Assembly (NCBI GenBank): GCA_963705985.1
Contig: CAVPLK010000006.1
Location: forward strand, 347,067-411,066
From: an uncultured Gemmatimonadales bacterium
GTDB lineage: Bacteria; Gemmatimonadota; Gemmatimonadetes; Gemmatimonadales; GWC2-71-9
DNA: 64,000 nucleotides
Reading direction: 5' to 3'
Shown here in pieces: positions 22,249-24,255 of this stretch (position 1 is the stretch's first letter; each line of letters starts with the position of its first letter). The notes beneath the pieces are model-generated. The model searched no databases, was not told the DNA's origin, and saw only the letters and a program-made list of their open reading frames with translations. A program made the position numbers and the translations under genes.

Positions 22249-24255
22249 TTGAGGCCGATTCTTCAGCAGGAGTACCGCGATTACGACCGCTACGCCGCCG
22301 ACCACCGCGCCGGCCACCTGGACGCCCCGGGACGCCGAGAAGCTCTACAACATGCCGGGCTGGGGCCTGGGCTTCTTCCGCATCAACGCCGACGGCCACG
22401 TCACCGTGCACCCCGACGGCGACCCCGCGCGACGGCCTCGACCTCTACCAGCTGGCCATGGACCTGCAGGCGCAGGGCGTCGGCCTGCCGCTGCTGCTCC
22501 GCTTCTCCGACATCCTCCGCTCGCGCATCGCGACGCTGGCCGAGGTGTTCAGCAAGGCCATCGGGGAGTTCGGGTACGAGGGGCGTACACCACCGTCTAC
22601 CCGATCAAGGTCAACCAGCAGCGCCACGTCGTGCGAGGAGATCGTCGAGTTCGGCGCCGCCCACGGCGTCGGGCTCGAGTGCGGCAGCAAGCCGGAGCTG
22701 CAGGCGGTGCTCGGCCTGCACGAGAGCACCGACCACCTCATCGTCTGCAACGGCTACAAGGACGAGGAGTTCATGCGGCTGGCCCTCATGGGCCAGAAGC
22801 TCGGCCACCAGGTGTTCATCGTGCTCGAGCAGCTCAGCGAGCTGGACGTGCTGCTGACGGTGGCGCGACGAGATGGGGGTCACGCCCACGCTGGGCGTGC
22901 GCATCAAGCTGGCCACCGAGGGGTCGGGGCGCTGGGCGAAGAGCGGCGGCGAGAAGTCGCAAGTTCGGCCTCAGCGCCGTCGAGCTGATGCGCCTGCTCG
23001 ACCAAGCTCGACCGGCTCGGGCGGAAGGACATCCTCCAGCTGGTCCACTTCCACCTCGGCAGCCAGATCACCGACATCCGCTACATCAAGGCGGGGCTGG
23101 AGGAGATCGCGCCGCTTCTACGTCGAGCTCCGCGCGCATGGGCGTCGACATCACGCACGTGGACGTCGGCGGCGGGCTCGGCGTGGACTACGACGGCTCG
23201 CGCTCGACCCGGCCCGCCAGCGTCAACTACACGCATGCGGGAGTACGCCAACGACGTCGTGTACACCATCGGCGAGGCCTGCCGCGAGCGGGAGCTGCCG
23301 ATGCCCCACCTGATCTCGCGAGTCGGGGCGGGCGCTCACCGCGCACCACGCCCTGCTGCTGGTGAACGTGATCGACGTCGAGTCGCCAGGTGCGAGCCGG
23401 TCCCGCCGGTCCTGGCGAGAGGACGCCGCACCCGCTGCTGCGCGAGATGGCCGAGAACCTCGACGGCCTCGACGCATGCGAGCGGCTCGATGAGGTCTTC
23501 CACGACGCGATCTTCGCCAAGGAGCGCGCCCAGCGAGCTACTTCACCAGCGGCGTGCTTCACGCTGCGCGACCAGGCCGACGCCGAGCAGCTCTACCTCT
23601 GCACGCATCAACGCGCCATGCAGCAGCTCGCTGCGGCGACGACCGGACGTCCTATCCCGAGATCACGGCCGCACATCGAGGCGACCCTGGTGGACCGGTA
23701 CTTCTGCAACTTCTCGCTCTTCCAGTCGCTGCCCGACAACTGGGCCATCGACCAGCTCTTCCCGATCATGCCGATCCACCGGCTCGACGAGGAGCCGACG
23801 CGGCGCGGCACGCTGCAGGACATCACCTGCGATTCCGACGGCAAGATCGACCGGTTCGCCGGCGGGCCGCAAGGGGAAGCCGTCGCCTGGAGCTGCACGC
23901 CGTGTCGCCGACGGCGAGCCGTACATCCTCGGCATCTTCCTCACCGGCGCGTACCAGGAGATCCTCGGCGACCTGCACAACCTCTTCGGCGACACCAACG
24001 CGGTGCACGTCCGGCCTGACGCCCCAGGGGTACGAGGTGACCGACCTGGTGCACGGCGACACCGTCACCGAGGTGCTCAACTACGTGCAGTTCCACGCCT
24101 CCGACCTGCTGGCGACGTTCCGCCGCAAGGTGACCGCGGCCCGGGATCTCTCCCGGGACGAGGCGAACACGTTCATCGCGGATTACGTGGCGGGACTCGA
24201 GGGGTACACCTACCTCGAAGGCGAGCCGCGAGCGGGCGGGAGTAGGGCGGCCTGA
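22249..24255 (+). pseudogene. speA: biosynthetic arginine decarboxylase, heavily frameshifted
   Basis: Conserved SpeA blocks alternate among all three forward frames. Examples: [131 protein letters not shown]. The 5' limit is uncertain (TTG at 22249 proposed). Confidence 0.85.

Follow-up and report, generated by a model that had tools for sequence, protein, structure and literature searches.

The speA locus

We analysed a 64,000-nucleotide stretch of contig CAVPLK010000006.1 from an uncultured Gemmatimonadales bacterium (GenBank assembly GCA_963705985.1, positions 347,067 to 411,066 of the forward strand), hereafter the window. Its subject here is speA, the gene for biosynthetic arginine decarboxylase, whose reading frame is broken many times in the deposited DNA. 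The window is syntenic with Gemmatimonadales metagenome-assembled genomes (MAGs). The gene order is a kinase, queuosine genes, an M1 peptidase, a small open reading frame (ORF), an M50 protease (minus strand), speA (plus strand), gltA (minus strand), an ADP-ribosylglycohydrolase, an M28 peptidase, QueF and an acyl-CoA dehydrogenase. The G+C content of the window is 69%. Two features define the problem:

22352-24255, plus strand: speA, biosynthetic arginine decarboxylase, in about 28 frame segments in the deposited DNA
22433-24311, no strand: closely spaced single-base insertions (the dense patch), with about 32 events over 1879 bp (17 per kb)

Consecutive pieces of arginine decarboxylase are spread over all three forward frames between 22240 and 24260. 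In the DNA as given, speA has no uninterrupted ORF, and the longest uncorrected ORFs stay below the Pfam thresholds. No second copy of speA, and no repeat able to cause a collapse, was found within the window.

The only canonical in-frame start of speA is the ATG at 22352. A preliminary description of this DNA had let the gene begin at 22249, but the TTG there lies in another frame than the conserved N-terminus. Conserved coding sequence extends upstream of the ATG in the same frame, to near 22283. In relatives (P0001, P0207) SpeA starts at a GTG, 21 codons upstream of the methionine in ...LYNMPGWG. The codon that matches this GTG is GCT in the window and GTC in L001, the closest genome locus.

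Counting and placing the frame changes

L001 is a Gemmatimonadales MAG with an intact speA and 87% nucleotide identity to the window. A nucleotide alignment against its speA gives about 28 one-base insertions in the window and one to three deletions. We also ran protein-guided, frameshift-aware alignments with six intact orthologues (L001, L002, L005, L010, L016 and L081). These give 24-31 single-base insertions in speA, a number that varies with the guide and with the merging of neighbouring events, together with one local net −1 at 22578-22585. The preliminary description had proposed such an alignment as a check on its own count of about twenty frame changes, most of them +1. The alignments require 24-31 shifts, far from one or two. 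The earlier count was therefore too low, and the direction of the shifts was right (about 28 insertions versus 1 deletion).

To restore a single speA ORF, 27-29 single extra bases have to be removed and the one local −1 repaired. The lengths agree with this: the 1904 nucleotides from ATG 22352 to the stop correspond to an ORF of 624-625 codons plus 26-29 net extra bases. Independently of any reference, a Viterbi segmentation by the phase of G+C at third codon positions (GC3) finds 10-13 phase segments in 22.3-24.0 kb, versus about one per gene elsewhere. Alignments and segmentation agree, and the frame changes first described are confirmed.

In the best parse, the speA events lie at 22433, 22634, 22866, 22960, 23003, 23112, 23137, 23234, 23319, 23386, 23393, 23418, 23425, 23534, 23538, 23557, 23606, 23616, 23617, 23630, 23634, 23671, 23864, 23886, 23908, 23909 and 24015. 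Usual contexts, with the extra base in square brackets, are TCG[C]AAG, TCG[C]GAG, GTG[C]GAG, GCG[C]ATG, ACG[C]ATG, CTC[G]CTG, GCC[G]CAC and GCG[A]GAG. At 23474-23479 the window also has an additional codon that keeps the frame: its L-DAC-ER stands against two residues in every homologue examined. Here three insertion events may be stacked, or a codon may really have been inserted.

The repaired gene

Once the extra bases are removed, speA contains no stop codon. The repaired 641-residue translation passes both NCBIfam SpeA equivalog models: NF003763 with 843.5 bits (cut-off 369) over profile positions 6-634 of 636, and TIGR01273 (speA) with 766.8 bits (cut-off 624.1) over positions 1-624 of 624. 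In Pfam it matches PF02784 at residues 93-347, PF17810 at 372-453 and PF17944 at 582-632, which is the SpeA order of pyridoxal phosphate-binding barrel, helical bundle and C-terminal extension. The motifs [15 protein letters not shown] and CDSDG are legible in it. That the conserved motifs of speA survive, as first described, is borne out by these full-length matches.

The repaired protein is also as conserved as its surroundings. It is 88.7% identical to L001 and 87.9% to L081, and the neighbouring genes are 84.5-93% identical to L081. At 303 columns that are invariant in 120 homologues, it carries 2 private changes. At least two private changes at those columns also occur in 14 of the 120 intact homologues.

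A gene that is untranslatable in its deposited form could be a real pseudogene, inactivated very recently and decaying by insertions, with the agmatine route to polyamines lost. Like a bacterial pseudogene in decay, speA combines multiple frameshifts in one gene with motifs that are still recognisable, and frameshifts in the M50 gene 0.5 kb upstream are present in the public record (see below). The pattern of damage, however, is not that of decay. Bacterial pseudogenes are expected to be biased towards deletions, a bias reportedly described by Mira, Ochman and Moran in 2001, and speA has the opposite, about 28 insertions against 1 deletion. A long drift to 28 indels should have left many substitutions at invariant columns, and the repaired protein has the two given above and no nonsense or radical substitutions. 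It matches its orthologues at the same level of identity as its functional neighbours match theirs, the extra bases are placed with regard to codon structure, and similar events occur in neighbours that look essential, for example gltA. We see neither relaxed selection, nor premature stops after repair, nor an excess of amino acid changes, nor a codon-blind mixture of indels in which deletions are at least as frequent as insertions. The decaying pseudogene put forward in the preliminary description is thus very improbable.

Extra bases and their neighbours

Most often a codon that ends in G is followed by an extra C, or one that ends in C by an extra G, as in TCG[C], GTG[C], GCG[C], ACG[C], CTG[C], CTC[G] and GCC[G]. 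Doublets with A or T are only occasional (GCG[A], AAT[C], ATT[C], TAT[C]). Homopolymer extensions and deletions are rare among the events. The extra base and its neighbour look like the two alternative bases of one variable site.

We discarded one seemingly striking pattern, that every insertion lies exactly at a codon boundary. It is partly an artefact of the aligner, which skips bases only between codons. For this reason the tests were run against simulated random insertions that passed through the same procedures. Under a strict criterion, where a synonymous wobble doublet has to be the best-scoring parse, 17 of 29 events qualify, compared to 0.30-0.38 under this fair null (P = 0.001-0.018). 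That is only moderately significant, and a test for two alleles was used instead.

The two-allele criterion asks for two unlike adjacent bases, where removing either one leaves a synonymous codon or a residue found among the 120 closest homologues. On this count 27 of 29 events qualify. When insertions are placed at random in the repaired speA, including a model that puts a C after any G, the share is 0.49-0.56 (P = 4e-7 to 1e-5). The fitting events include non-synonymous ones: G[C|G]C (Ala/Gly) at 23112 and 23137, where both residues occur in relatives, [C|G]AG (Gln/Glu) at 22634 and [C|A]TC (Leu/Ile) at 23606.

By a manual parse, about 23 of the 27 doublets are G/C. Natural variation at wobble positions has the same spectrum: at four-fold degenerate sites, 116 of the 129 differences between the window and L001 are exchanges of C and G, and these sites consist of 52% C, 47% G and 1% A. 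The excess of G/C in the doublets mirrors this natural wobble variation.

Extra bases that are nearly all +1 and leave the protein information perfectly kept could also be real and be overcome during expression, by programmed +1 frameshifting of the ribosome, by quadruplet decoding or by RNA editing. Programmed +1 frameshifting is known from prfB and antizyme, and antizyme is also a gene of the polyamine pathway. The known cases, however, use a single site with a conserved motif, whereas speA has about 28 heterogeneous sites. The preceding codons (TCG, GTG, GCG, ACG, CTC, CTG, GCC, CGA, CGG, GAG, CAG) share no common shift motif, and the following codons vary as well. All orthologous loci and proteins that we examined are uninterrupted, and the extra bases are found in none of more than 120 orthologues, so that speA lacks the defined, conserved motif of a programmed shift. 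Furthermore, with about 28 shifts needed one after another, virtually no full-length protein could be expected at a realistic efficiency, and unrelated genes are also affected, at random places. We give recoding almost no credence. Hardly more credible is that the extra bases are real and speA is expressed because many +1 sites are tolerated, or that a local insertion-prone mutational process targets wobble positions.

The dense patch and its neighbours

The borders of the patch differ from those of the gene. The patch begins 80 nucleotides inside speA and ends in the 3' end of the convergent gltA. Outside the patch there are 9 events in the other 62 kb of the window. Seven further genes in the window bear the same signature, and its sporadic sites are 11086, 19390, 19433, 21759, 21790, 25791, 46149, 60573 and 61144. 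The affected genes besides speA are:

24278-24311, minus strand: gltA (citrate synthase), four one-base insertions in the last 20 codons, TAT[C]ACC at 24311, GCC[G]CGG at 24292, and also 24282 and 24278
21759 and 21790, minus strand: M50 protease gene (21009-22132), two one-base insertions, GCC[G]CTC and GCG[C]CCA
19390 and 19433, plus strand: M1 peptidase gene, two one-base insertions, GTG[C]CCG and AAT[C]CCG
25791, plus strand: ADP-ribosylglycohydrolase gene, one one-base insertion, ATT[C]ATC
11086, minus strand: Ser/Thr kinase gene, one one-base insertion in the glycine loop, GGG[C]GGC
46149, plus strand: NrfD/ActC-like membrane protein gene, one one-base insertion, CGC[G]GCG (or GGC[G])
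60573 and 61144, plus strand: putative oxidoreductase gene, one-base insertions GCC[T]ATC (or TAT[C]) at the first site and GCG[C]GAA at the second

With the L081 proteins as guides, five neighbouring genes together have 9 insertions and no deletion, and the M28 peptidase and a 136-residue ORF have 0 insertions each. Without its two extra bases, the M50 gene becomes a 373-residue ORF of the same length as the L081 orthologue. The preliminary description had given the neighbours zero or one disruption and had placed the damage in one 2-kb gene. The first statement does not hold, as M50 has two, gltA four and the M1 peptidase two. The second holds in part: there is a dense cluster in speA, but it spills past the speA stop into gltA.

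In gltA the insertions coincide with the loss of the normal stop. The ORF runs on antisense to speA, down to 24210. Where relatives end in ...PIDKRK*, the window reads ...PIENAR and then continues into the 3' end of speA. The remainder of gltA is 93% identical to L081 and contains no event. The junction of speA and gltA may be garbled in further ways too.

Five of the nine sporadic events lie within about 3 kb of the patch (19390-25791), and those near the patch are often paired, 30-45 nucleotides apart (19390/19433 and 21759/21790). This clustering suggests that the zone in which strains vary extends further around speA.

Between 42506 and 47363 the window encodes a 1003-residue Fe-S/molybdopterin-type subunit followed by an NrfD-like membrane subunit, which together look like a module of the alternative complex III or polysulfide-reductase type. 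The insertion at 46149 splits the NrfD-like gene and thereby creates one wrong-frame ORF of 647 codons across three genes. By eye, the gene with events at 60573 and 61144 looks like an oxidoreductase of the aldehyde oxidase or xanthine dehydrogenase type.

The public record

When the intact ORFs of the window were looked up, 10 of 12 products were present letter for letter in the protein collection, all from one 432,328-bp NCBI/ENA contig. From the same public contig P0199 is recorded, the 231-residue product of 21009-21704 and thus a C-terminal fragment of M50. It begins at an internal methionine of M50 and could be called only if the gene was broken upstream. The repaired 373-residue M50 is not on record in the protein collection. 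As the fragment is recorded and the repaired protein is absent, the M50 frameshifts belong to the deposited assembly. Most likely the same applies to the speA events, judging from M50 0.5 kb upstream.

These records bear on whether bases were added to the window once it had been downloaded, deliberately or through an error in processing. Two results would suit such an alteration: predicted ORF fragments of speA are missing from the protein collection, and a contig look-up with three exact window proteins returned no source contig. Against it, the public contig already contains the broken M50 and the repaired form is absent. Random spiking would not yield G/C doublets at wobble bases, and a similar signature occurs in an independent public contig (L084). 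We regard alteration as extremely improbable. The deliberate corruption that had been considered earlier is unlikely given P0199, which is evidence for M50, 0.5 kb upstream of speA.

L084 (ENA ERZ25039533 contig_53155, 706 kb) comes from a related Gemmatimonadales species. Its six syntenic genes contain 50 one-base insertions and 8 deletions. The events, at 1-12696, lie mostly next to wobble bases, and all six genes are fragmented. In short-read assemblies of relatives (L081-L083), speA and the syntenic genes are all intact. The contigs of L001 and L084 are named in the style of Flye, and L001 has an isolate name of MFD, the project that worked with Flye plus Medaka; these are the names of relatives, not of the source contig. 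Truncated SpeA products also occur on contigs of 0.1-3 Mb (P0223, P0256, P0258, P0270, P0279 and P0328).

A simpler account is plain consensus noise: a poorly covered or unpolished long-read stretch in which C is added after G, or G after C, in GC-rich DNA, without any strain polymorphism. The patch is physical rather than bounded by a gene, L084 is error-ridden throughout, most events are a C after a G, and several events do not fit natural alleles. All four observations suit noise. The case also resembles the residual frameshift errors of Nanopore and PacBio MAGs that are detected by IDEEL-type tests (PMC9262707, PMC13087279): truncated genes on a long contig, which are commoner in complex soil samples and at low coverage, and a member of the same family, L084, that is affected throughout. 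Soil assemblies from Oxford Nanopore Technologies reads have more frequent frameshift errors (PMC13087279). However, the usual residual long-read errors are homopolymer extensions and deletions (PMC9262707). Classic cases consist of homopolymer length errors with many deletions, whereas the events in the window avoid both; they are non-homopolymer insertions beside wobble bases, clustered in one 1.9-kb patch. A null model with context only (C after any G, G after any C) yields 0.56 acceptable doublets, in contrast to the 27 of 29 observed (P about 1e-5), and the doublet spectrum copies the natural wobble spectrum. We therefore consider noise alone an unlikely explanation.

A probable collapse of strains

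The broken speA is most likely not a real biological feature. In our judgement it is probably a consensus artefact that arose when strains were mixed in a long-read metagenome assembly and the two versions of a variable base were both retained, one beside the other. Reads of at least two closely related, co-occurring strains would have been merged into a single consensus. Wherever these strains vary, the consensus would keep both alleles next to each other, which gives a one-base insertion and a +1 frameshift. In this GC-rich lineage such sites would mostly be G/C at third codon positions. If about half of the reads have G and the other half C, a likelihood-based polisher may prefer "GC", provided that a missing base is cheaper than a substitution between G and C; we infer this preference for the two-base string at mixed sites. 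The doublets would then be strain alleles, and the organism's real speA would be intact and functional.

What we find agrees with such a collapse in two respects. The extra bases sit at variable sites where both alternatives are acceptable, and they are not limited to one gene but also occur in other genes of the window and in L084. Similar errors are known from merged haplotypes in long-read assemblies, where early FALCON assemblies have indels at heterozygous sites (Korlach et al. 2017, PMC5632298). There, too, one-base indels fall right at the differing nucleotides and break gene models although each haplotype is intact, and phasing cures them. In the window, the merged units would be co-occurring bacterial strains instead of two parental haplotypes, and the events are nearly all insertions. 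The soils behind the MAG set that holds L001 show marked microdiversity, and this set was made with Flye plus a single Medaka round (PMC12313526).

Between 22433 and 24311 the co-assembled strains would probably differ densely, for example in a recombined tract, leading to about 32 events, with sporadic events elsewhere. The patch is sharp, about 1.9 kb long and ignores gene borders, which would fit a densely strain-divergent tract such as a recombination import, although this is a guess. Hence the artefact may mark a real 1.9-kb tract of unusual strain divergence, centred on speA and the 3' end of gltA. A locally low-quality assembly patch had been among the initial suggestions; it is supported here, and narrowed to 22433-24311 with a signature of doubled variant alleles.

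As a cause of the patch, we also considered reads of related species that map onto a conserved gene. This is not sufficient: conservation is 86.7% for speA but higher for gltA (90.3%) and for the acyl-CoA dehydrogenase (90.8%), and these two are clean.

Several observations weigh against collapsed strains. Conservation alone fails to explain why the patch lies at speA, and the strict codon-position test is only moderately significant. No plausible natural allele accounts for GAG[C]TAC at 23538, for the second C at 23617 and 23909, or for the −1 at 22578-22585. By a manual count GC doublets outnumber CG doublets about 3:1, a skew not foreseen by the simple model. Repair of the gltA 3' end did not restore its normal stop, and the four insertions explain the loss only in part. 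Nine predicted ORF fragments of speA, M50 and gltA are not in the protein collection, which counts here as far as speA is concerned, and a search for the 209-residue ORF at 23390-24016 found no identical product there. Nor was an intact speA of the same species found among 5.8 billion proteins, where the best match has 89%, and a scan of genome contigs gave no speA locus above 89% among the matches listed, a ranking in which broken hits from the source genome would fall too low to appear. Because of the misfit events, the skew between GC and CG and the unrepaired gltA end, plain polishing noise likely contributes a share of the events.

Implications

The signature can serve as a flag that needs no reads and as a guide for repair: insertions only, outside homopolymers, as G/C doublets at wobble bases, with a conserved ORF after repair. 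It also points to sites of strain collapse. Metabolic reconstructions and pseudogene counts from such long-read MAGs would wrongly score speA, M50, gltA and further genes as broken. For the bacterium itself, a loss of the agmatine route should not be inferred; most likely, the organism has a normal arginine decarboxylase.

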